In this document: positions 1 to 52,975 of the stretch, piece after piece
Layout of the letters: each line of letters opens with the position of its first letter
Position numbering within the stretch: the first letter of the stretch is position 1
From: Escherichia phage phiEcoM-GJ1
Direction: 5' to 3' (one strand)
Sequence record: NC_010106.1
Length of the DNA: 52,975 bases
The notes under the pieces: model-generated
Told to the model about the DNA's origin: nothing
What the model saw: only the letters and a program-made list of their open reading frames with translations
The model's database searches: none
Made by a program: the position numbers and the translations under genes

Positions 1-156
1 CGATTAAATGGGAGAAGAGATTCGATGCGTTAGCGTCGTTTCTCTTTGAGCTAGAATAAAATAAGTAAGTTTTCAATATTACTTATTCCCAATATTGCTA
101 CAATATTTAAAGTAATATTAGGAATGCGTAAAGTTCAAAACCAAATGGTACATGGT

Positions 157-211
157 CGGTCAACTGTATCTAGACATAGACTCGTTCACAATCGGTCAGC
201 TGTATCTAGCC
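157..211. repeat. two copies of a 19-bp direct repeat CGGTCA(A/G)CTGTATCTAG(A/C)C
   Basis: Copies at 157-175 and 193-211 with 2 mismatches, 36-bp spacing, in the ORF-free left end. Confidence 0.6.
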
Positions 212-287
212 GGAATTTGTTCGAACAGAAGTCCGACTATGTTATAAAAATTTTTTATATAATTTTTTTAATTTAAATATTGTTACG

Positions 288-395
288 GAATTAATGAGAC
301 TCAAATTGTTTCAATTACTCACTTCGTTCGTCCGATATTAATGAGACTAGAATTGTAACGATATTGACGAGACTAGAATTGTGGCGATATTATTT
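288..395 (+). promoter_or_regulatory. three tandem ~26-bp repeats; candidate host-RNAP early promoters or operators upstream of the RNAP gene
   Basis: ATTAATGAGACTCAAATTGT / ATTAATGAGACTAGAATTGT / ATTGACGAGACTAGAATTGT; the third copy gives TTGACG-N18-TATTAT; an AT-rich tract precedes at 236-290. Confidence 0.4.
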
Positions 396-654
396 TTATT
401 TTTGGGCCAGCGGGGAGGGGAAGCCCAACGTCCTATCGGACTTAAAATACGGTCCCTACCCCAACTTTTTCCTACAGCCTATCGGCTTTCAAACAACACC
501 AAGTTAGGTGCTTCGCTTATAGGTCAAGGTCAAAGTCTCCGTGCTGTTGTAACAATGGCACAGGTTTGTGATATTAGTTGGAAGTGAATTGTGTAATGGC
601 TACGCTATTATAATCCGTTTCAGTTAAATCATACACAATCTTGGAGACTTACAA

Positions 655-2601
655 ATGACTACTATCACCACTCAAACTATCAAATCCGTTGTTCCTGCTA
701 TCACTGCTCTGGTATACCGTGCCAAAGAGAAACAGAACTATATGCAGCCTCAGACTTGTGCTATTGCTGCCTTAGCCATCTTCAAGATGATGACCTCTTT
801 CACTCGTGATGATGTTATCCCAGCCATTGCAATGGTTGAACTGGCTTCTGCTTCTATTGCTGATGCCAACCGTTATAACAACGACCTGAAAGCAATGCAC
901 TATGTTGACCCAGCTATCAACCTGATTGGTCTGGCTAAGCACTTTGGCTTCATCACCATGAACGAAGACAAATCGTTCCAGATGACTGATGCATGGATTG
1001 AACTGGTTACAACCAAAGATACCTCAGTTCCATTCACTGAGAAGGTAACAACTGAATCTCGTCGCAAGCCTTTCGTCAAAGGTGGCAAAGTTAAGCCATC
1101 CAAGACTCTGAAAGCTGCAATCGAATTCCTGCAAGATACTGCATATCACGTTGATGCTACAATGGTTAAGGTTATCTCTTCCATGATTGAGCAACGTACT
1201 TATGGTGGCTTGCAGATGCCAGAGGCAATCCAGACTGAACTCCATGTTTGGAACAATGCTGTAGCAATGGTTGGTCAGGACACTCTGTTCTCTGACTACT
1301 TTGCTGATAACCGTGGTCGTCTGTATCATGTTGCTTGTGCTGGTCCTAACCCACAATCATCTGACTTTGCTCGTTGCTTGTATTCCCACAATGTTGAGAA
1401 CACTGTGAGCAAGTTTAATGATGATGGTTCAACAACTCTGGCATACAACATGTTCATGCTTGAGCTGGAAGATATTGCTGGTGGAGACTGGACTTCTGCT
1501 AAACGTTTAACTTATGTTGCACAGAATCCTGTTGGTTCTTTGGCTCGTATGATGAACATGGACAAATCTGAACGTCCTTCTAAGCCATTCACTTATGTTC
1601 GATTAGCTCTGGATTGGTTCAAGTTTGAGACTACTGGTGAGTGCGATTCTCGCGTAGGCTTTGGCTTAGATGCTAAATGTTCTGGTACTCAATATCTGGC
1701 ATTCATTGCTGGTAACATGGAAATGGCTCGTGCAACAGGTCTGGTTGATTCTGAGACTAAGGCATCTGACCCATACCAGTTATCTCTTCGTGAACTGTTA
1801 AAGTTATTAGACCGTTCTTCAATGAAACCATCTCCTGAAATTATGGATGAATTCTTGAATCCGAAAGCTGGTCGTAAGTTTATCAAAACTCCATACATGG
1901 CTATCCAATATGGTGGTGGTAAAGCTGCATTAACTGGTTCTTCTGACTTTATCTCCTACATGACAGAAGCTCTCCAGATTCCTATGGAGAAAGCTGAGGC
2001 ATTTGCTGAACTGTGTGTAGAAGCAATCCATAACGCATTGGGTGAGAAGATTAACATGTTCATCGAGAAAGCTGCTGATGCTGCATACACTCGTTGTGTT
2101 GAACTTGGTAAAGAGTATATCACATATAAGCACACTGATGGCCAAGTTGTAATGAAGCCTTGCTTCCCATCTCGTGACATTTGTGATGCTTTCTCCATTC
2201 GCATTGATTCAGCAACTCGTGTAATCTTTGGCGTAATGTTGGAGGGTGAAGAGAAACCTTGGACCATTCGTGAGTCCAATCCAACTAAAGAAGAATTCAA
2301 ACGTACCTTCGTTGTTAACTACATTCAAGGTATTGATGCATTGGTTGCTCGTACTGTTGCAATCAAAGCTAAAGAAGCTGGTCTTCGTGGCTTTACTTCA
2401 ATTCACGATTGTTTCCGTTGCTGCTTAGCTGATGCTCCTCTCATGATGGAAGTAATTCGTTCTGCTTATATTGAAATCTTTGTTAATAATAATCAGTTTG
2501 AATCTCTGTCTAAGCAACTTGGTGGCATCAACATGTATCACGAGAACATCGTAACAGAAGAGCTTCTGATGAGCGAACACGCTTACTACTTCTGTCAATA
2601 A
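655..2601 (+). CDS. single-subunit T7-like DNA-dependent RNA polymerase, compact form
   Basis: 648-aa ORF with GGAG RBS; palm motifs in T7 RNAP order: GLDAKCSGTQ (motif A-like), KTPYMAIQYGGG (motif B-like), SIHDCFR (motif C-like); about 200 aa shorter at the N-terminus than T7 RNAP. Confidence 0.85.
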   Translation: MTTITTQTIKSVVPAITALVYRAKEKQNYMQPQTCAIAALAIFKMMTSFTRDDVIPAIAMVELASASIADANRYNNDLKAMHYVDPAINLIGLAKHFGFITMNEDKSFQMTDAWIELVTTKDTSVPFTEKVTTESRRKPFVKGGKVKPSKTLKAAIEFLQDTAYHVDATMVKVISSMIEQRTYGGLQMPEAIQTELHVWNNAVAMVGQDTLFSDYFADNRGRLYHVACAGPNPQSSDFARCLYSHNVENTVSKFNDDGSTTLAYNMFMLELEDIAGGDWTSAKRLTYVAQNPVGSLARMMNMDKSERPSKPFTYVRLALDWFKFETTGECDSRVGFGLDAKCSGTQYLAFIAGNMEMARATGLVDSETKASDPYQLSLRELLKLLDRSSMKPSPEIMDEFLNPKAGRKFIKTPYMAIQYGGGKAALTGSSDFISYMTEALQIPMEKAEAFAELCVEAIHNALGEKINMFIEKAADAAYTRCVELGKEYITYKHTDGQVVMKPCFPSRDICDAFSIRIDSATRVIFGVMLEGEEKPWTIRESNPTKEEFKRTFVVNYIQGIDALVARTVAIKAKEAGLRGFTSIHDCFRCCLADAPLMMEVIRSAYIEIFVNNNQFESLSKQLGGINMYHENIVTEELLMSEHAYYFCQ

Positions 2602-3855: not shown

Positions 3856-4045
3856 GACCAAATCTCTGTAAATTCTGCTGAAATTGTGTGACAGATTTTA
3901 GAGAGATTATGTCTCCAAGCTAATCATTGTAGTTTTTCGGCACTTGCTGTGTCACATACTCCCTGCAACTTTAAGGTGGATTAAGGTAATACAAGACCTC
4001 CACAATCGTTCTGTAGGGAGTTTTCTTTTAACTTTGGAGAATAAA

Positions 4046-4294
4046 ATGGATACTGTGATTAAAGCTGCTTACTTCAAAGACCTGCCAGATGGACAAATCT
4101 TTACTGTTCGTTCTGTGAAGTGGATTAAAGTAAATGAGTCAGATAAGTACAATGCCGTAAAGTTCTTTGATTCAAGTAAGGCATGTACTTTTAGCGACAA
4201 TATTGTTGTCAATATTGAAGTCGAATTAGAGCCAGATGATTCAAATGATGAAATCATCCTGCGTAAAACTGTTGGATACACCAAAGGATTCTGA
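4046..4294 (+). CDS. hypothetical protein
   Basis: ORF with GGAG RBS before the internal ATG (MDTVIKAAYF...); the track ORF 3944..4294 probably over-extends 5'. Confidence 0.5.
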   Translation: MDTVIKAAYFKDLPDGQIFTVRSVKWIKVNESDKYNAVKFFDSSKACTFSDNIVVNIEVELEPDDSNDEIILRKTVGYTKGF

Positions 4295-4295
4295 A

Positions 4296-4526
4296 ATGAA
4301 TTATGCACTGTATCATTATATAAGCAGGACTGGACTTGTTCGTCATGCTTTGGTCAACATTAAAACTAAAGATGTGATGTTGGCCGATATGTCAATTTAT
4401 GGAAACAACTTAGTGTGGAAGCGTGCTGCAAATCCTAGTCATGTTTGGCTTGTAATCCAGTCTGACAAATATCACAAAATTGTTGCAATGGCTAATCGCC
4501 CAGAGCACATCGTACCGAGGAAATAA
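4296..4526 (+). CDS. hypothetical protein
   Basis: ORF MNYALYHYISRTGLV...; tightly packed with neighbours; start chosen at internal ATG. Confidence 0.45.
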   Translation: MNYALYHYISRTGLVRHALVNIKTKDVMLADMSIYGNNLVWKRAANPSHVWLVIQSDKYHKIVAMANRPEHIVPRK

Positions 4527-4528
4527 TC

Positions 4529-4717
4529 ATGGACTTCATCGTCTACTTTAAGTTAAATGGTGTAGAGCAAAGATTGTACTTCAATTCTTTACTTCGTTTG
4601 CAACAGTGGGCGGAGAAGTTTGTTGGGTATGACTTTGAATACATCAACGCATGTACACCTGACGAACATGAGGAAATCGTGTTCAGTGGATTAAATCAAA
4701 TTCTGGAGGCAAAATGA
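4529..4717 (+). CDS. hypothetical protein
   Basis: 62-aa ORF with GAGGAAA RBS. Confidence 0.5.
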   Translation: MDFIVYFKLNGVEQRLYFNSLLRLQQWAEKFVGYDFEYINACTPDEHEEIVFSGLNQILEAK

Positions 4718-4874
4718 AGCTCAAATATATGACCAAAACGGTTACATATATGGCTATGTATGGTGCTTCAAAGCGTAAGGCTAAGAAATTAGCAAGAGCT
4801 GCAAATCCTCGCATGCCAGCACGTAAAGTGGCCAAAGTTATCAACTCTGTATTTGGTATCTGGAGTATAAAATG
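4714..4874 (+). CDS. hypothetical small basic protein (53 aa)
   Basis: MKLKYMTKTV...; GGAGG RBS; overlaps neighbours by 4 and 3 nt. Confidence 0.45.
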
Positions 4875-5045
4875 AACGACCAACAATTCAACACATTCAT
4901 GCAGCAGATTAATCATCAAGAACTGATGGAAGCTATCAAAGGCAAGAAGCCAGTCGAACGTAAATATCGTAAAATTGATAATTATATGCCAACAATCATT
5001 GCATGTGTTGGTGTTGCTATTGTTCTATACTTCCTGGTGAAATAA
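4872..5045 (+). CDS. hypothetical small membrane protein (57 aa)
   Basis: MNDQQFNTFMQQ...TIIACVGVAIVLYFLVK has a hydrophobic C-terminal helix; a 28-aa hydrophobic peptide ORF follows at 5045-5131. Confidence 0.4.
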   Translation: MNDQQFNTFMQQINHQELMEAIKGKKPVERKYRKIDNYMPTIIACVGVAIVLYFLVK

Positions 5046-5140
5046 TGTCGATTGTTAAGAAATTAGTATTCTGCATTCTAATGTTCCCTCTGGTGCTGCT
5101 CGTTGTGGGCAGCTTCATGTACTTAAACTAAGGTAATCAA

Positions 5141-5440
5141 ATGCCATCTTTACTTGAATTCTCGAATGTAGCAAATGTTGCTAAAAATTCTATTCCGAAA
5201 AATCCAGATGTAATTGCATACATGCGTGTTGATGTAAGTCTGTTGGCCTTTGTAATGGACCACATCAACCGTGTCGAAGCGCAGTTGTCTGAGTCTTACG
5301 AAACAGTTGACACTCTTCGTGGACTTCGTAGTGCGGAACAAAGCGCTTATGATGAACTGATGGAGCAAAAGAACAAGCTCCAGGAACAGTTGGCAGATGC
5401 ACTTCAACAAATTGAAGAGCTGACACCAGCATCTAAATAA
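5141..5440 (+). CDS. hypothetical protein, predicted coiled coil
   Basis: 99-aa ORF with AAGG RBS; heptad-like C-terminal region. Confidence 0.55.
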   Translation: MPSLLEFSNVANVAKNSIPKNPDVIAYMRVDVSLLAFVMDHINRVEAQLSESYETVDTLRGLRSAEQSAYDELMEQKNKLQEQLADALQQIEELTPASK

Positions 5441-16314: not shown

Positions 16315-16965
16315 ATGATTACTGCAACACTCGTTGACCACATGGGCAGCGACCTCACAACTGTTAATGCTGCACGAGCTTCTTATGGTGCAGAGTCCCA
16401 TGAGATGACATTGCGCGACGAAAAGCTCATTGAATTTCTCGCAAGGCATAAGCACAATACACCTTTTGCCCATGCGTATGTAACATTACGCTGCACTGCA
16501 CCAATCTTTGTTGCACGCCAACTGGGTAAGCACCAGGTGGGCTTTCGTTGGAACGAAGTTAGCCGTCGTTACAAAGATGGCGAAGCAATCGAAATTGAAT
16601 GCTTTGTACCTGATGTGGTGTTTGGTCGTCCTGAAAAGTTGATGACTCAGACTGCACAACCATTGCCACAGGATTTTGCTGACGATATTCACTATCGCAT
16701 GGAAATCCACAACAAGGCTTGCATTGCAGAGTATGAAACGTTAATTGGTTTGGGGATTGCTCCAGAGCAAGCCCGAATGGTGTTGCCACAATCCATGATG
16801 ACTACATGGATTTGGACTGGCTCTTTACTGGGCTGGGCTAATATGTACAAGCAACGCTCTACAGAGCACGCCCAATATGAGGCACGTTTGTTTGCAGAAG
16901 AAGTTAATAAAATTATGTCAGAACTATTTCCGGTTTGCTGGAAGGCTTTGACTAATCAGGAATAA
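16315..16965 (+). CDS. thyX: ThyX-like flavin-dependent thymidylate synthase homolog with non-canonical signature
   Basis: Resembles ThyX across the N-terminal half (HxxTPFxHxxxTxxxxAPIFVARQ...S-RY); the position of the canonical RHR-x7-S signature reads KHQ-x8-S. Confidence 0.75.
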   Translation: MITATLVDHMGSDLTTVNAARASYGAESHEMTLRDEKLIEFLARHKHNTPFAHAYVTLRCTAPIFVARQLGKHQVGFRWNEVSRRYKDGEAIEIECFVPDVVFGRPEKLMTQTAQPLPQDFADDIHYRMEIHNKACIAEYETLIGLGIAPEQARMVLPQSMMTTWIWTGSLLGWANMYKQRSTEHAQYEARLFAEEVNKIMSELFPVCWKALTNQE

Positions 16966-25815: not shown

Positions 25816-26415
25816 ATGTCTTGCATGACCCAAGTTGTTGCAGTTAAACGAGTGCATCCTAATGCGAAATTACCTGTGTACGCTACTGCTGGCGCTGCTG
25901 CTGCTGACGTTTGCACTATCTCCGATAGCACTGTTGTCATCAATCCCGGCTGCTCTGCTGTTTTCGATACTGGCCTCCAATTCGAGATTCCAATTGGATA
26001 CGAACTCAAAGTACATAGCCGTTCTGGTCATGGCTTTAAGTCTGGCATTCGCCTGGCAAACTGCACAGGAATTCTGGACTCCGATTATCGTGGCAATCTT
26101 ATGGTTAAGCTGCACAACGACTCGGACACAGCCTTTGTGGTTCAGCCAGGTGAACGTATTTGTCAGGTGCAAGTTAGTAAAGCTACTCAACACCATTTCG
26201 TTGAAGTTGACCGCTTGAATGCAACTGGTCGTGGTGAGGGTGGCTTTGGCTCAACTGGTCGTGTGGAACTTGGTCAACATGAAAGACCACACATTCCTGA
26301 TGGTTCACACTCGCACAGCATCTCTATTGTTGGTGATGGCGGTGTGAAAGTGTCTTTGCCAGGTACTGTTGAAATCACTGGTTCCCACACCCATGGGGCC
26401 GAACGTTACAAATAA
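25816..26415 (+). CDS. dut: dUTPase (trimeric type) with ~50-aa C-terminal His-box extension
   Basis: Motifs HSRSGHGFK, GILDSDYRGN, GERICQ, RGEGGFGSTGR in canonical order; extra C-terminal GSHSHSISIVGDGGVKVSLPGTVEITGSHTHGAERYK. Confidence 0.85.
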   Translation: MSCMTQVVAVKRVHPNAKLPVYATAGAAAADVCTISDSTVVINPGCSAVFDTGLQFEIPIGYELKVHSRSGHGFKSGIRLANCTGILDSDYRGNLMVKLHNDSDTAFVVQPGERICQVQVSKATQHHFVEVDRLNATGRGEGGFGSTGRVELGQHERPHIPDGSHSHSISIVGDGGVKVSLPGTVEITGSHTHGAERYK

Positions 26416-38062: not shown

Positions 38063-38238
38063 TATCCCTGTTCCCCGACATAAAATATTTTCTGCATCGT
38101 CCTATAATCGAAGACAGTTCTCTCTGCAAGTTACGTGAATTGCAGGATGGAACCTATTCGATTATGGACTTATTGCTATTCCACGACATTCTCGATTTGC
38201 GTAAGAAACTCGAACCAGTAGATGAAGACAATGGCTAA
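37960..38238 (+). other. -1 frame extension of the tail chaperone (GT-like frameshift product)
   Basis: The -1 frame opens at 37960 at the heptamer TTTTTTC (37960-37966) and runs to 38238, overlapping the next gene start by 17 nt. Confidence 0.5.
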
Positions 38239-41200
38239 TCAAAAAGATTTAATGAAGTTGAGCGTTAATGAGTTAATTGCATTAGGCTCTCAAAGCGGTC
38301 TGACTTTCCATGCTGGTATGAAGAAGTCGCACATGGTTCAACAACTTAGTGCGAGCGCTGCTTCGGGATGGCTGGATACAAATGCAGAATTAATGGGTGG
38401 GTCGTTTGAAGATGACAGTTTAATTACTGAATCTCTTGGCGACTCTTCCATGATTTCAGACGCTGCCCACATTGCACAAGTGCTTTCAAGTGCTGGCTAC
38501 ACAGAAGCATTTCATGCAGCAATGAATGGCCCAACACACCATGTAGAAGCTGTTCACGCATACATGGAAAGGCTTGGTGTCAACACAGATGATGTGTGGA
38601 TGCACATGCCAAAGCCAAATCCGAACTTACCGCAAGGTAGCTTCAACATGCTTAATGCGTACATGCGTGATACGCTGGCAGGTCATCAAGATATAATGCC
38701 GGAACTTCCTGGTCATTACACTGGTGACATTATGGGTGAATACTCTACAAACCGTGGAGATATTGCCAAATCTATGGGCTATCTTGCTCATATGTATGTT
38801 GACCGTCAACAATATGACGACCCAGACCGCTATGCACGAGATGTTTATCGTGTAGCCAAACGTTTAGAATCAGAATTGCCGCAAAACTTCCGTGAAGTTG
38901 CTGCTGTATCTGCAATGAATGTAGGTAATAAGTCGGGGCCAAGAGTTTCATACATGGATTCTCTCCCTCAACTTGGTTCCGAATCTATTGTTGGTGATAT
39001 TCAACATCCTCGCCAACCACTTAACGCATCTGGCCTACCTTTAGGCTCTATGGGTTCTGGCATTAAAGCTGAATATTCTTTATCTGCATCATTATCTGGC
39101 TCCCCAGGTTGGTCTGATGCAAGTAAATCTTTATATCAAGATGTATCTGGCGCAGTTAAATCTGCTGCTAAGGTATATGCTGGTGGTTCAGAACGAGGGA
39201 TGAACGCATATCGCACTCAATCTTCTGACCGAGATTTGATTCTTGATTCTGCATCTCGTTATACAGACCTTGCAGATGCTCGTTCTGGTTATGACAACCT
39301 AAAGAAAGATATTGGTGATGACCCTCGTTACTCTGGTGCATCTATTCGTGGCGTACTGGAAAATGCTCACCAATATAATGAAGCTGAAATCAGTAAGACT
39401 TTCGACCCTGCTGAACGTTTAAGAAATACTGGACCTACTGAACTTAGTACATCCAATGAGTTTACGGCAAATCTAAATGAACCGACAAGTTGGAACTCTG
39501 CAAGGGATAGAAGAGAGTCTATTGCTATTGCAAATCTCGATAGTGCTAGCGTTGGACAGCATAGTTCGGTTAAGTACCACGATGCGCTCGAACAAGGTAC
39601 GCAGGAGTGGCTTGATTTTCGTAAGCAGTATGATATTACTGGCTCTACTATTGGTGACTATCTGGGCCACAACCCCGCAACCAATAATAGCCCAATACAT
39701 ACAATGGGCGAAAAGATTGGCCTCACAGTAAGAAAGGATTCCCCACGAGCGCGCGAGAACTTTGAGCGTGGACATAGATTAGAGGCGTGGGCCAGACCCA
39801 GGGTAGGTGAACGATATGGGATTGAAATAACTGAAACTGGTGCAATCACAAACGACGACTATCCTGGCATGATGTACTCGCCTGATGGGCTAATTGGTGA
39901 TGATGCTTTGTGGGAACATAAAGCTCCAAATAACTTTAAAGATTTGGAAACAACTCCAAACTACATGGACCAGATGCAACTTGGTATGCATTTGAGTGGC
40001 CGTAGTCGCACACTGTTTACCCAAACTGTTGGCGAAGAGTCCAGAAGTCAGTGGGTTGAAGCCGACCCAACGTGGTTTGAACGTAACAAGAACAAGATTA
40101 TATCCTCTCAAGCACGCATGAATGCTGGACGCGAGTTTATGGAAAGCTCCGACCTTGAGGGAAAAGACCTTGTTAATGAAACCCGCAAAGTTATGTCTGG
40201 TGATGGAATTTGGGGCTACCAGACTCGTGACCACAGGGAAGGTGAGGGATATACTGCTGGCAAGCGCGGGATGGCTAAATATAGTGCTGCTGCTGGCACT
40301 GCTGCTGACCCGTTTATTGGCTCCCATTCTCCCTACAATCCAGAGGCATCTCGTTCAGGCTACCAACCAAACTTTGTAATGCACGAGCAAAACTTTCCAG
40401 CAACCACAGGAAATGGTGATACTGGAAATGACTCGATGGCATTGTCTGTTAAGAAAGGTATCCTTGCTGCTCAGGAAGAGAATAAGCAAAAGGGTATTGG
40501 TGCAGACGCAGACTTTGATGGCAAAGCTGATTCAATGGGTTGGAATCAGGAACGATTTGATGCTGCCAATGGTGGTGGAAGTGGTGGCGGCGGTGGTCGT
40601 GGCGGCTACTTCACAAGTGGTGGCAACTACTTCGATGACTACGGTCGTATGGGTGGTTCACTTGCTGCTGGCATTGCTGGTGGCAGTATTGGTTCGGCAA
40701 CCAACGGAGTTATGCAAGCATTGATGGCAACTCCTGCCGGACGTATGGCTGCTGTAGGCATTGGTGCTATTCAGATTGGCAATGAAGCTGCTGAATACAT
40801 GAATGACTTTATCGGCAACTCGCTTGATGCTGGTGTTATGAATCCTAATGAATATTCTTCCATGTCGCAAGGCTTGGAGATGTTAGGACTCAACTCACAA
40901 CAAGCGGCACGTATGAATCAAACCACACATAGTGCCTACAACACCATGCTTAACGGCGACCCCAGCGCCGCTGTGAACATCGTTCGCGGCAGTAGGGGAT
41001 TGCTCACCATAGGTGATATTCGCTCGACTGGCGGCGACCCTGTTGCCCTCGCTCGCATTATGCAGGAAAGAGGCAAGGAACGTGGCTGGAGTCAGGCCCG
41101 TATCGCTGGTGCTGCGCAGATGGCTGGGCTGGATGGTATGGCTCGTGCCTTCGACCGCACGGAATACAGCCATGAGCGAGCAGGTTCGGTGGTAGAAAGT

Positions 41201-41950
41201 GGTAGAAACTCTGACTTTGCCGAAGGTATGGCTCAATCAGAAATGTTGCAGGTGGAGCGCGCACAGCTTCTGCCAGGGTATAACGTGCCACAAAGTGTGC
41301 TATCTCATGGTGCTGCACTGTTCGAAGCTGGAAGCACTGCTGCTGGTGCTGCTAACTCTGGATACAGCCAAGCCCGACAAGTTGCTGCAAACGTTTATGA
41401 TTTCATTGCTGGTGAAGAGTCTGGTGGCAAGGAATACAACAAGGATGGTACACGAGTTACAAGCCCGACTGGTGCTCGTGGAATCATGCAGGTTCTTCCT
41501 TCTACTGCTCGTGACCCAGGTTACGGAATCAAACCTTCTGATGGAAGTCCTGAAGATGATGCTCGTGTCGGTCGTGAATACTACGATGCGATGTATAAAC
41601 GATTCGGTGGCGACCATGAGAAAGCAATGGCTGCTTACACGGATGGTGCTGGAACTGTTGACAAGGCTGTCGATAAGTTTGGAATGGATTGGCTCAGTGC
41701 TGTTCCGGCTCAGGCTCAGAAACGTGTTAAAGCATTCCGTGAATGGTCCAAATCTTCTCAATCTTTGGAAGAAGGTGCTACAGGGTTTACTCGCAATGGA
41801 ATGTCCTACGGTCAAACCCAAACTGTTGTCAATGTTAAGATTGATGCTAAGGTCAACAACCAGGTTGCTTCTGCTACAGTTGCAGTTCCTGGTGGCCAGA
41901 CTGTAACTCAACAAATGAACATGAACAACGGTGCACAACAAAGACGTTAA
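38222..41950 (+). CDS. large multidomain virion protein at the tape-measure position: HeH-like N-terminus, lambda-exonuclease/YqaJ-like PD-(D/E)XK nuclease domain, Gly-rich region, lytic transglycosylase (SLT) domain
   Basis: 1242 aa; N-terminal L..L.V.EL..L motif (Rho-N/HeH-like); residues ~440-640 contain QGTQEWLDFR...ITGSTIGDYLG and YSPDGLIGDDALWEHKAP...YMDQMQLGM, matching the lambda exonuclease/YqaJ active-site pattern; GGGSGGGGGRGG tract; C-terminal GEESGG...SPTGARGIMQV...AYTDGAG matches the SLT signature. Confidence 0.7.
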   Translation: MKTMANQKDLMKLSVNELIALGSQSGLTFHAGMKKSHMVQQLSASAASGWLDTNAELMGGSFEDDSLITESLGDSSMISDAAHIAQVLSSAGYTEAFHAAMNGPTHHVEAVHAYMERLGVNTDDVWMHMPKPNPNLPQGSFNMLNAYMRDTLAGHQDIMPELPGHYTGDIMGEYSTNRGDIAKSMGYLAHMYVDRQQYDDPDRYARDVYRVAKRLESELPQNFREVAAVSAMNVGNKSGPRVSYMDSLPQLGSESIVGDIQHPRQPLNASGLPLGSMGSGIKAEYSLSASLSGSPGWSDASKSLYQDVSGAVKSAAKVYAGGSERGMNAYRTQSSDRDLILDSASRYTDLADARSGYDNLKKDIGDDPRYSGASIRGVLENAHQYNEAEISKTFDPAERLRNTGPTELSTSNEFTANLNEPTSWNSARDRRESIAIANLDSASVGQHSSVKYHDALEQGTQEWLDFRKQYDITGSTIGDYLGHNPATNNSPIHTMGEKIGLTVRKDSPRARENFERGHRLEAWARPRVGERYGIEITETGAITNDDYPGMMYSPDGLIGDDALWEHKAPNNFKDLETTPNYMDQMQLGMHLSGRSRTLFTQTVGEESRSQWVEADPTWFERNKNKIISSQARMNAGREFMESSDLEGKDLVNETRKVMSGDGIWGYQTRDHREGEGYTAGKRGMAKYSAAAGTAADPFIGSHSPYNPEASRSGYQPNFVMHEQNFPATTGNGDTGNDSMALSVKKGILAAQEENKQKGIGADADFDGKADSMGWNQERFDAANGGGSGGGGGRGGYFTSGGNYFDDYGRMGGSLAAGIAGGSIGSATNGVMQALMATPAGRMAAVGIGAIQIGNEAAEYMNDFIGNSLDAGVMNPNEYSSMSQGLEMLGLNSQQAARMNQTTHSAYNTMLNGDPSAAVNIVRGSRGLLTIGDIRSTGGDPVALARIMQERGKERGWSQARIAGAAQMAGLDGMARAFDRTEYSHERAGSVVESGRNSDFAEGMAQSEMLQVERAQLLPGYNVPQSVLSHGAALFEAGSTAAGAANSGYSQARQVAANVYDFIAGEESGGKEYNKDGTRVTSPTGARGIMQVLPSTARDPGYGIKPSDGSPEDDARVGREYYDAMYKRFGGDHEKAMAAYTDGAGTVDKAVDKFGMDWLSAVPAQAQKRVKAFREWSKSSQSLEEGATGFTRNGMSYGQTQTVVNVKIDAKVNNQVASATVAVPGGQTVTQQMNMNNGAQQRR

Positions 41951-51302: not shown

Positions 51303-51857
51303 ATGCTATCATTCAAAGTCCTTGCACTTCTGGCAGCTTTAGTTCACATCAACGCCCCAGCTTCGGTTGGGGCAGTGAACACTGCTATTATAGATTTTGC
51401 AAGTCATTCTTATTTAAATGGAAGTCTAAAACTATCTTCTTCACAACGCAAAGAGCTAGAATGCTACGCTAAAGTTATCTGGTATGAAGCTCGCGGAGAA
51501 GACAAACATGGAAAGATTCTGGTAGCTAATGTCGTCCGTAATAGAACAGAGTTCGGGAAGCCATTCGCTAACACCGTTTGTAATGTTGTCTATCAACGCA
51601 ATCAATTTGCATGGACACGAGAAGCAAAGAAGAAGAATGCTCAATGGAAGCATGTAGCAAAGGTTAATTATGCCACAGAACAACAACAAGTTCTGGACAC
51701 GATTAATGTTGCAATCTCTTTTGTATTATTTAATCAACCCTCTGTCACCAAAGCAACTCACTTTTGCACAGCATCGGAGAAGTGTAACTTCAAGAATGTC
51801 AAAGGATTGGGACGTTATGGTGGCCATAAATTCTATGAGTATCTAGGAAATCTGTAA
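51303..51857 (+). CDS. SleB-like cell-wall hydrolase (endolysin) with N-terminal signal or signal-anchor sequence
   Basis: N-terminus [24 protein letters not shown]; catalytic domain resembles the SleB/Hydrolase_2 family ([11 protein letters not shown]...VVRNRTEF...QFAWT). Confidence 0.7.
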
Positions 51858-52975
51858 TGGCTTACACTACCTTTTCACAAACCAAGAATAACCAATTACT
51901 AGAGCCAATGTTCTTTGGTCAGAACGTTAACGTTGCTCGATATGACCAACAGAAGTACGGCATATTCGAGAAGTTAATTGAGAAACAATTGTCATTCTTC
52001 TGGCGACCGGAAGAGGTAGACGTTTCCCAGGACCGTATTGATTATCAGAAGCTACCTGCAAACGAACAACACATTTTCACCAGTAATCTTCGTTATCAGA
52101 TTCTTCTTGACTCAATTCAGGGACGTGGGCCCAACACAGTTTTGCTTCCAATCGTGAGCATTCCTGAATTGGAGACGTGGATTGAAACCTGGTCTTTCTC
52201 CGAGACTATTCATTCACGTTCTTATACCCACATCATTCGTAATATTGTTACAGACCCAAGCATTATCTTTGATGAAATCGTAACTAACGAACACATCAAG
52301 GCACGAGCAATTGGCATCTCCCAATATTATGACGAACTCCAGCAACTCACTGCATTATGGCAGTTGTTCGGAGAAGGGAGCCATGCTGGTCATGAAATTA
52401 GTCTGCGTGAGTTGAAGAAGAAGCTGTATTTATGCCTCATGTCTATCAATGCATTGGAAGCAATTCGCTTCTATGTCAGCTTTGCTTGCTCATTTGCCTT
52501 CGCAGAACGTAAGTTAATGGAAGGAAATGCCAAGATTATTCGCTTAATTGCACGAGATGAAGCACTTCATTTGACAGGAACTCAGCACATGCTGAACCTT
52601 CTTGCAAGTGGAAAAGATGACCCAGAAATGGGTGAAATTGCTGCTGAATGCCGCCAAGAATGCCAGAAATTGTTCGAAGATGCTGCTCAACAAGAGAAGG
52701 ATTGGGCCGATTATTTGTTCAAAGATGGCTCTATGATTGGCTTAAACAAGCAAATTCTATGCGGATATGTGGAATATATCACGAATATTCGTATGCAAGC
52801 AGTTGGATTAGATGCTCCATTCAAAGGTGCAACTAACCCGATTCCGTGGATTAATGCATGGTTGAATTCGGATGCTGTACAGGTTGCTCCACAGGAAACG
52901 GAGATTAGTTCCTACCTGGTCGGGCAAATTGACTCCGAAGTTGATACCAATGCGCTCGGTGGATTCGAGTTGTAA
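51857..52975 (+). CDS. nrdB: ribonucleotide reductase class Ia beta subunit
   Basis: 372 aa, alignable end to end with E. coli NrdB as recalled ([11 protein letters not shown]...[11 protein letters not shown]...[21 protein letters not shown]...[22 protein letters not shown]), but with AT-richer codon choice than a host chromosomal gene. Confidence 0.9.

Follow-up and report, generated by a model that had tools for sequence, protein, structure and literature searches.

An nrdB gene without an nrdA partner in Escherichia phage phiEcoM-GJ1 and its possible pairing with the host ribonucleotide reductase

The DNA analyzed here (the window) is the complete unit genome, 52,975 bp, of Escherichia phage phiEcoM-GJ1 (NC_010106.1), a member of the genus Carltongylesvirus (Chaseviridae, Cleopatravirinae), and the gene under study, nrdB, is the last one in it. 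The nrdB open reading frame (ORF) is uninterrupted from ATG to TAA, its stop codon ending on the final base of the window, and its product is identified by homology as NrdB, the beta subunit of a class Ia ribonucleotide reductase (RNR). The protein matches the Pfam family PF00268 (Ribonuc_red_sm) with an E-value of 1.4e-49 and 169 bits (cut-off 33.6), passes the NCBIfam equivalog model NF006576 for the class Ia RNR subunit beta with 719 bits (cut-off 346), and aligns end to end with the E. coli R2 structures (E-value 1.8e-205), whereas the best class Ib NrdF model gives only 99 bits against a cut-off of 355. The observation is far above chance level. A preliminary description of the window had called the protein nearly colinear with E. 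coli NrdB, and the alignment agrees, with 81% identity to the K-12-type NrdB over 372 aligned residues and a single gap of four amino acids (aa). At the DNA level, the identity to E. coli nrdB is 71.5%, and the phage gene matched a chromosomal nrdB in all of the complete E. coli genomes searched (5,426/5,426).

The catalytic residues of E. coli NrdB (E. coli numbering is used here for residues) are kept in the phage protein. By alignment, these include all six di-iron ligands (D84, E115, H118, E204, E238, and H241), the radical tyrosine Y122, the hydrophobic pocket residues F208, F212, and I234, and the radical-transfer residues W48, D237, E350, and Y356. The gap falls within E. coli residues ~174–184, where one phage clade (372 aa) lacks 4 aa and the other (366 aa, e.g., Bp10) lacks 10 aa. 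Since the length of this hairpin element differs between the clades, it is, judging from the alignments, dispensable in the phage protein. In E. coli NrdB, residues Y356–L375 form the alpha-binding peptide, which co-crystallizes with alpha2 (PMC11447812). The phage tail is identical to that of E. coli at 15 of 20 residues and retains every position that is invariant among 115 cellular homologues, namely Y356, L357, G359, Q360, I361, D362, F373, and L375. Four of the five tail differences sit where the cellular homologues naturally vary, the exception being D369A. T4-type NrdB, from phages that have their own NrdA, possesses a differing C-terminus, DDKVMMSFKKYF (...SFKKYF). I297, the key contact of beta at the alpha4beta4 interface of the dATP-inhibited enzyme, and its motif DGSMIGLNK are unaltered in the phage protein, while three residues near that contact are altered (R292K, D302Q, and Q306G).

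Table 1. Features of the nrdB locus and associated genes of phiEcoM-GJ1 (window coordinates).
Feature	Coordinates	Strand	Basis or remark
Non-coding/small-ORF stretch between nrdB and the RNA polymerase gene	1..654	.	blastn of joined junction
Terminator-like hairpin CGATGC-GTTA-GCGTCG followed by a T-run	23..48	+	Terminator scan, 1 found vs 0.5 expected
RNA polymerase gene (RNA_pol, PF00940)	655..2601		
ThyX gene	16315..16965		
dUTPase gene	25816..26415		
Holin, 113 aa	50944..51285	+	Pfam PF05106; size matches phiEcoM-GJ1 gp73; context gene
Endolysin, Hydrolase_2 family	51303..51857	+	Pfam PF07486; annotated endolysin in relatives; directly upstream of nrdB
Ribosome-binding site AGGAAAT (51845..51851) and nrdB ATG (51857..51859)	51845..51859	+	Sequence read directly
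nrdB, class Ia ribonucleotide reductase beta subunit, 372 aa	51857..52975	+	ORF, Pfam, NCBIfam, E. coli R2 structures
Tyr123 codon (= E. coli Y122, stable tyrosyl radical site)	52223..52225	+	Alignment to E. coli NrdB, sequence
4-aa deletion site relative to E. coli G179–V182, between phage His179 and Glu180	52391..52396	+	Alignments
C-terminal tail (= E. coli Y356–L375), putative alpha-binding peptide	52913..52972	+	Alignment, 115 cellular homologues

The preliminary description had also stated that the window holds no gene for an alpha subunit, and this is borne out. A tblastn search of the whole window with E. coli NrdA gave a best E-value of 0.46, and the same search for a YfaE-like ferredoxin with E. 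coli YfaE gave 0.63. A divergent alpha subunit among the long ORFs was considered and rejected, each ORF of at least 400 aa having a different identity (RNA polymerase, primase/helicase, family A DNA polymerase, terminase, portal, DUF2213, sheath-like DUF3383, tape measure, and lectin-fold fibre). An nrdA gene beyond the window was looked for as well. The window's final 1,200 bases were joined to its first 3,500 and compared with the relatives by blastn, and the joined sequence aligns unbroken to Pel53 (4,337 nt, 94%) and PYps23T (3,807 nt, 93%). In relatives whose records start elsewhere, the RNA polymerase gene comes next after nrdB, across ~0.6–0.7 kb that holds no large gene. Given this contiguity of end and start and the RNA polymerase gene next in the relatives, an nrdA gene just outside the window was rejected. 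The lack of nrdA concerns the operon context and leaves the assignment of the protein to its family untouched.

The start of the window before the RNA polymerase gene is therefore a convention of deposition, and the earlier placement of nrdB at the genome end holds in part: no gene follows nrdB in the unique sequence, but the end itself is conventional and contiguous with the start. The suspicion that the locus might be a junction with a host chromosome was dismissed, the flanks being phage lysis and tail genes and the nrdB-endolysin region sharing 88–96% nucleotide identity with 44 phage records. Beyond this region, the window shows the features of a Carltongylesvirus genome, including the RNA polymerase, portal, sheath-like, and tape-measure genes, and the records of the relatives examined place them in Chaseviridae, Cleopatravirinae, and Bp10 in Carltongylesvirus. 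Direct terminal repeats of 2.3–3.2 kb are reported for members of the family, and the window carries one copy. The left boundary of the repeat corresponds to window position ~584 by PYps23T, in which it was mapped, and to ~443 by 4HA13, in which it was predicted. By analogy with these phages, virion DNA would continue past nrdB for ~440–585 bp and then enter the terminal repeat, where the RNA polymerase region would occur a second time.

Besides NrdB, the phage encodes a ThyX and a dUTPase of its own. As a separate observation on the long ORFs, the 1,242-aa protein at the tape-measure position (38222–41950, + strand) contains a YqaJ-like recombinase/exonuclease domain (aa 462–594) together with an SLT lytic transglycosylase domain (aa 1048–1152), an unusual pairing in a tape measure.

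On its left side, nrdB adjoins the lysis genes. The endolysin stop codon TAA (51855–51857) and the nrdB ATG overlap as TAATG, which implies that nrdB is co-transcribed with the lysis genes and makes translational coupling possible. The identical string from the Shine-Dalgarno sequence to the ATG is tabulated for ORF79 of phage ST32 (PMC6266442). At the endolysin-nrdB junction, neither a sigma-70-like promoter above chance nor a terminator was found; the promoters of the phage RNA polymerase in this family are not defined. On the continuous genome, the terminator-like hairpin at the beginning of the window sits 23 nt past the nrdB stop codon and probably ends the transcript of the late/lysis genes and nrdB. 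This arrangement suggests that nrdB is the final cistron of a late lysis transcript. No transcriptome data for Carltongylesvirus were found in the literature.

The nrdB gene is confined to a narrow group of phages. In the phage collection searched, NrdB at 90% identity or above was found only in the 44 Carltongylesvirus-type records, in all of which the frame is intact (44/44). The next-best phage matches, at 77% or less, come from jumbo phages and 90-kb podophages; in one of the phages at this level, Cronobacter phage vB_CsaP_009 (NrdB 76%), nrdA is adjacent. Within the family, nrdB is missing from Sabourvirus 4HA13, Loessnervirus Y2, and Suwonvirus PM1. In these sister genera, small ORFs at most separate the endolysin gene from the repeat/RNA polymerase region or from the end of the record. 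Searches for homologues of NrdA, NrdB, and YfaE in the whole genomes of 4HA13 and Y2 and in the right-hand 8 kb of PM1 found none. The window and 4HA13 can still be aligned on either side of the insertion point. On this comparison, nrdB is an accessory gene specific to the genus, inserted between lysis cassette and terminal repeat.

Several records met during these searches deserve mention in their own right. Pel53 (PP952070.1) is labelled a Staphylococcus hyicus phage, yet it is 94–96% identical to the coliphage across the compared region; its host label looks doubtful, and its NrdB is of the enterobacterial class Ia type. In the Pantoea jumbo phage Survivor (PP885733.1), positions 3995–5379 contain a host-like nrdB (78% to the window protein) followed by a YfaE-like ferredoxin gene (65% to E. 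coli YfaE). At this locus of the 271-kb genome, which was the part inspected, no nrdA is adjacent, and the 721-aa protein encoded downstream is not NrdA-like. The plasmid database PLSDB holds 737 records with NrdB-like proteins, 677 of them below 60% identity and mostly from non-mobilizable replicons of Klebsiella, Escherichia, Enterobacter, and Salmonella, while several of the top plasmid matches (~80% identity) are chromosome-sized records filed as plasmids. Among the nrdB matches in E. coli genomes, 203 are on plasmids. Two apparent fusion proteins were set aside. One (P0004, 494 aa, from an NCBI contig) is an enterobacterial NrdB with a repeated mid-protein peptide, PVSYTHLDVYKRQ, and was read as an assembly artefact; the peptide is presumably of the kind typical of translated sequencing-adapter contamination. 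The other (P0047, 574 aa), an nrdA-nrdB fusion, is an assembly artefact as well, probably from a mis-assembled short contig.

The composition of nrdB is that of the phage. Its guanine-plus-cytosine (GC) content is 0.427 overall and 0.426 at third codon positions (GC3), compared with 0.512 and 0.645 for E. coli nrdB, and the GC3 of 32 other genes in the window is 0.415 ± 0.040. The AT-richer codons that had been remarked on earlier are thus confirmed and fit those of the other phage genes. Synonymous sites are saturated relative to E. coli (proportion of synonymous differences, pS, 0.81–0.84). Between phage copies, the ratio of nonsynonymous to synonymous substitution rates (dN/dS) is 0.024–0.075, with dS reaching 0.79, and nrdB is under strong purifying selection. 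The 372-aa and 366-aa clades differ at 26 aligned residues, none of which lies in the C-terminal 96 (hypergeometric P = 2.6e-4). Taken together, composition, saturation, and selection indicate that nrdB is old in this lineage and fully ameliorated, and is neither a recent pickup nor a decaying remnant.

The closest cellular relatives of the phage protein are the NrdBs of Enterobacterales, with identities of 79–81% for the E. coli cluster and 77–79% for the others. In a bootstrapped neighbor-joining tree, the phage copies are monophyletic with 100% support, and a long branch places their clade outside the Enterobacterales and Pasteurellaceae proteins sampled; this placement carries no bootstrap value, and the backbone nodes of the tree are weak. 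The tree fits an old acquisition followed by faster evolution. The earlier proposal of an acquired and ameliorated gene agrees with the enterobacterial kinship, the phage-like composition, the saturated synonymous sites, and the absence of the gene from the sister genera.

Both the gene and its orphan status in phiEcoM-GJ1 are already known, having been tabulated in 2013. The annotations of the relatives already call the gene RNR beta, and the study of ST32 reported that the last ORF of ST32 and that of phiEcoM-GJ1 encode the RNR beta subunit (PMC6266442). The sizes tabulated there for phiEcoM-GJ1 gp72–gp75 equal those of the last four products of the window (356, 113, 184, and 372 aa), and the identity of 93% between the window NrdB and ST32 ORF79 is the same as that published for phiEcoM-GJ1 (PMC6266442). 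In the survey of Dwivedi et al. (2013), only two phages have nrdB alone, and phiEcoM-GJ1 is one of them (PMC3653736, Table S1). A literature search found no paper on a hybrid of a phage NrdB with a host NrdA and none in which the phage protein is tested.

Because the phage lacks an alpha subunit, its beta2 is expected to use the NrdA of the host. The features by which a small-subunit-only viral RNR would be recognized in sequence, a beta subunit without an alpha subunit and intact catalytic residues under purifying selection, are found in phiEcoM-GJ1, and its relatives, too, have beta without alpha. The best explanation, and one that we consider reasonably probable, is an acquired, catalytically competent beta2 that pairs with host NrdA. 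An ancestor of Carltongylesvirus would long ago have captured nrdB from an enterobacterial-type class Ia nrdAB system, and the composition of the captured gene would since have come to match the phage completely. In the infected cell, the phage beta2 may dock via its host-type C-terminal tail onto the host alpha2, and the resulting hybrid of host alpha2 and phage beta2 may raise or sustain the synthesis of deoxyribonucleoside diphosphates for phage DNA replication, acting alongside the phage ThyX and dUTPase. All of this is inferred from sequence, from the binding to NrdA and the activity of the enzyme to the gain for the phage and the time at which nrdB is expressed. A precedent for such a hybrid is the strategy of the chordopoxviruses, most of which encode only the small subunit, R2. 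The vaccinia R2, F4, is described as pairing through its C-terminus with the cellular large subunit, R1, in a functional hybrid that is needed for efficient replication (PMC2900304).

The preliminary description had offered a regulatory role as the other way to account for a lone beta subunit. The phage NrdB could bind NrdA or mix with host NrdB so as to modulate or block the host RNR or to change its allosteric regulation, instead of simply contributing catalytic capacity. The retained host-type tail would serve such a function equally, the phage-specific D369A and the shortened hairpin, with its deletion differing between clades, could be read in this way, and in poxviruses an R2 that has lost catalysis but not R1 binding acts as a dominant negative (PMC2900304), so that binding alone can have biological effects. 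However, the six metal ligands, Y122, W48, D237, and Y356 would be superfluous for a pure decoy, yet they are kept at a dN/dS of at most 0.08. Moreover, blocked synthesis of deoxyribonucleoside triphosphates (dNTPs) would hurt a phage copying its own 53-kb DNA, and the unaltered I297 and DGSMIGLNK give no sign of engineered feedback escape. A regulator or decoy is hence improbable, and of the two roles proposed earlier, it is the hybrid reductase that fits the sequence evidence, namely the intact catalytic residues, the tail, and the low dN/dS. A related reading grants the phage beta2 activity and supposes that it reprograms the host RNR, out-competing host NrdB or weakening the inactivation by dATP through the hairpin, D369A, R292K, D302Q, and Q306G; we regard this as unlikely. 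The particular version in which feedback escape results from loss of I297 in beta was not supported, I297 and its motif being kept.

One could also imagine that nrdB has no present function and is the remainder of a phage nrdAB operon whose nrdA has disappeared. The other phage with nrdB alone, Campylobacter phage CPt10, has a degraded nrdA (PMC3653736), and the sister genera live without nrdB. Such a dispensable remnant is nevertheless very hard to reconcile with a frame intact in every related record, with the low dN/dS at a dS as large as that observed, and with a C-terminal region invariant between clades; the tblastn search also revealed no nrdA fragment anywhere in the genome. We hold it to be very improbable, and we would place equally little weight on another partner, such as NrdE, or on moonlighting as an iron/oxygen-dependent oxidase outside nucleotide reduction. 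Nothing specific speaks for the latter two, whereas the tail is, by sequence, of the class Ia type that binds NrdA, the NrdF model falls far short of its cut-off, and the identity to canonical NrdB is high.

Some points do weigh against a hybrid of phage beta2 with host NrdA. The residue at position 369 is Asp in 113 of the 115 cellular homologues, and its replacement by Ala in the phage tail might weaken or change the binding of alpha. Late expression is suggested by the place of nrdB behind holin and endolysin and by its overlap with the endolysin stop codon, and such timing would be surprising in an enzyme that supplies replication. 4HA13 infects E. coli without nrdB, so that any benefit of the gene is accessory. 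Dwivedi et al. described the functionality of incomplete RNR sets in phages as unknown (PMC3653736), and the literature search found no biochemical, genetic, or expression evidence for any Carltongylesvirus.

The present value of this analysis lies in a confirmation and a sharpened, testable hypothesis and not in a discovery, and nothing in the sequence is anomalous. If the hybrid reductase is true, this group of phages would offer a bacterial counterpart of the R2-only strategy of poxviruses that is compact and amenable to genetics. It would follow that the radical-bearing subunit alone suffices to boost host dNTPs, and hence that beta, not alpha, limits RNR in infected E. coli. The natural variants of the phage protein, with two hairpin lengths and substitutions in the tail, would then be available for the study of alpha-beta recognition in the best-studied RNR. 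If the host enzyme is instead reprogrammed, the hybrid RNR would be deregulated, and a small-subunit-only hijack of a host reductase would for the first time be demonstrated in a bacterial virus.

Among known systems, the nearest are the other Carltongylesvirus NrdBs (ST32 ORF79, Mangalitsa, flopper, PYps23T, and Bp10, among others), which share 91–99% protein identity with the window NrdB and the same gene order of holin, endolysin, nrdB, ~0.65 kb of non-coding sequence, and RNA polymerase. E. coli NrdB (R2; PDB 1RIB, 1MXR, and 6W4X) has the metal ligands, Y122, the radical-transfer residues, and, at 15 of 20 residues, the C-terminal alpha-binding motif in common with the phage protein, and both pass NF006576. 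The phage copy differs in residing in a virulent phage without an adjacent nrdA or yfaE, in its lower GC3 (0.43 vs 0.65), in the deletion of G179–V182, and in D369A in the tail. The NrdA/NrdB of T4 and the nrdAB of Privateervirus belong to the same enzyme class and share the general purpose of boosting dNTPs. Their NrdB is homologous to the window NrdB, at 53% for the T4 type and 76% for vB_CsaP_009. However, those phages carry nrdA next to nrdB, while phiEcoM-GJ1 has no alpha subunit. The R2-only RNR of chordopoxviruses belongs to a eukaryotic virus and host, was acquired independently, and has an experimentally established function. It is nonetheless the system with the division of labor proposed for the phage, in which the virus, as exemplified by vaccinia F4, likewise supplies only the radical-bearing small subunit, in a form close to that of the host (PMC2900304).

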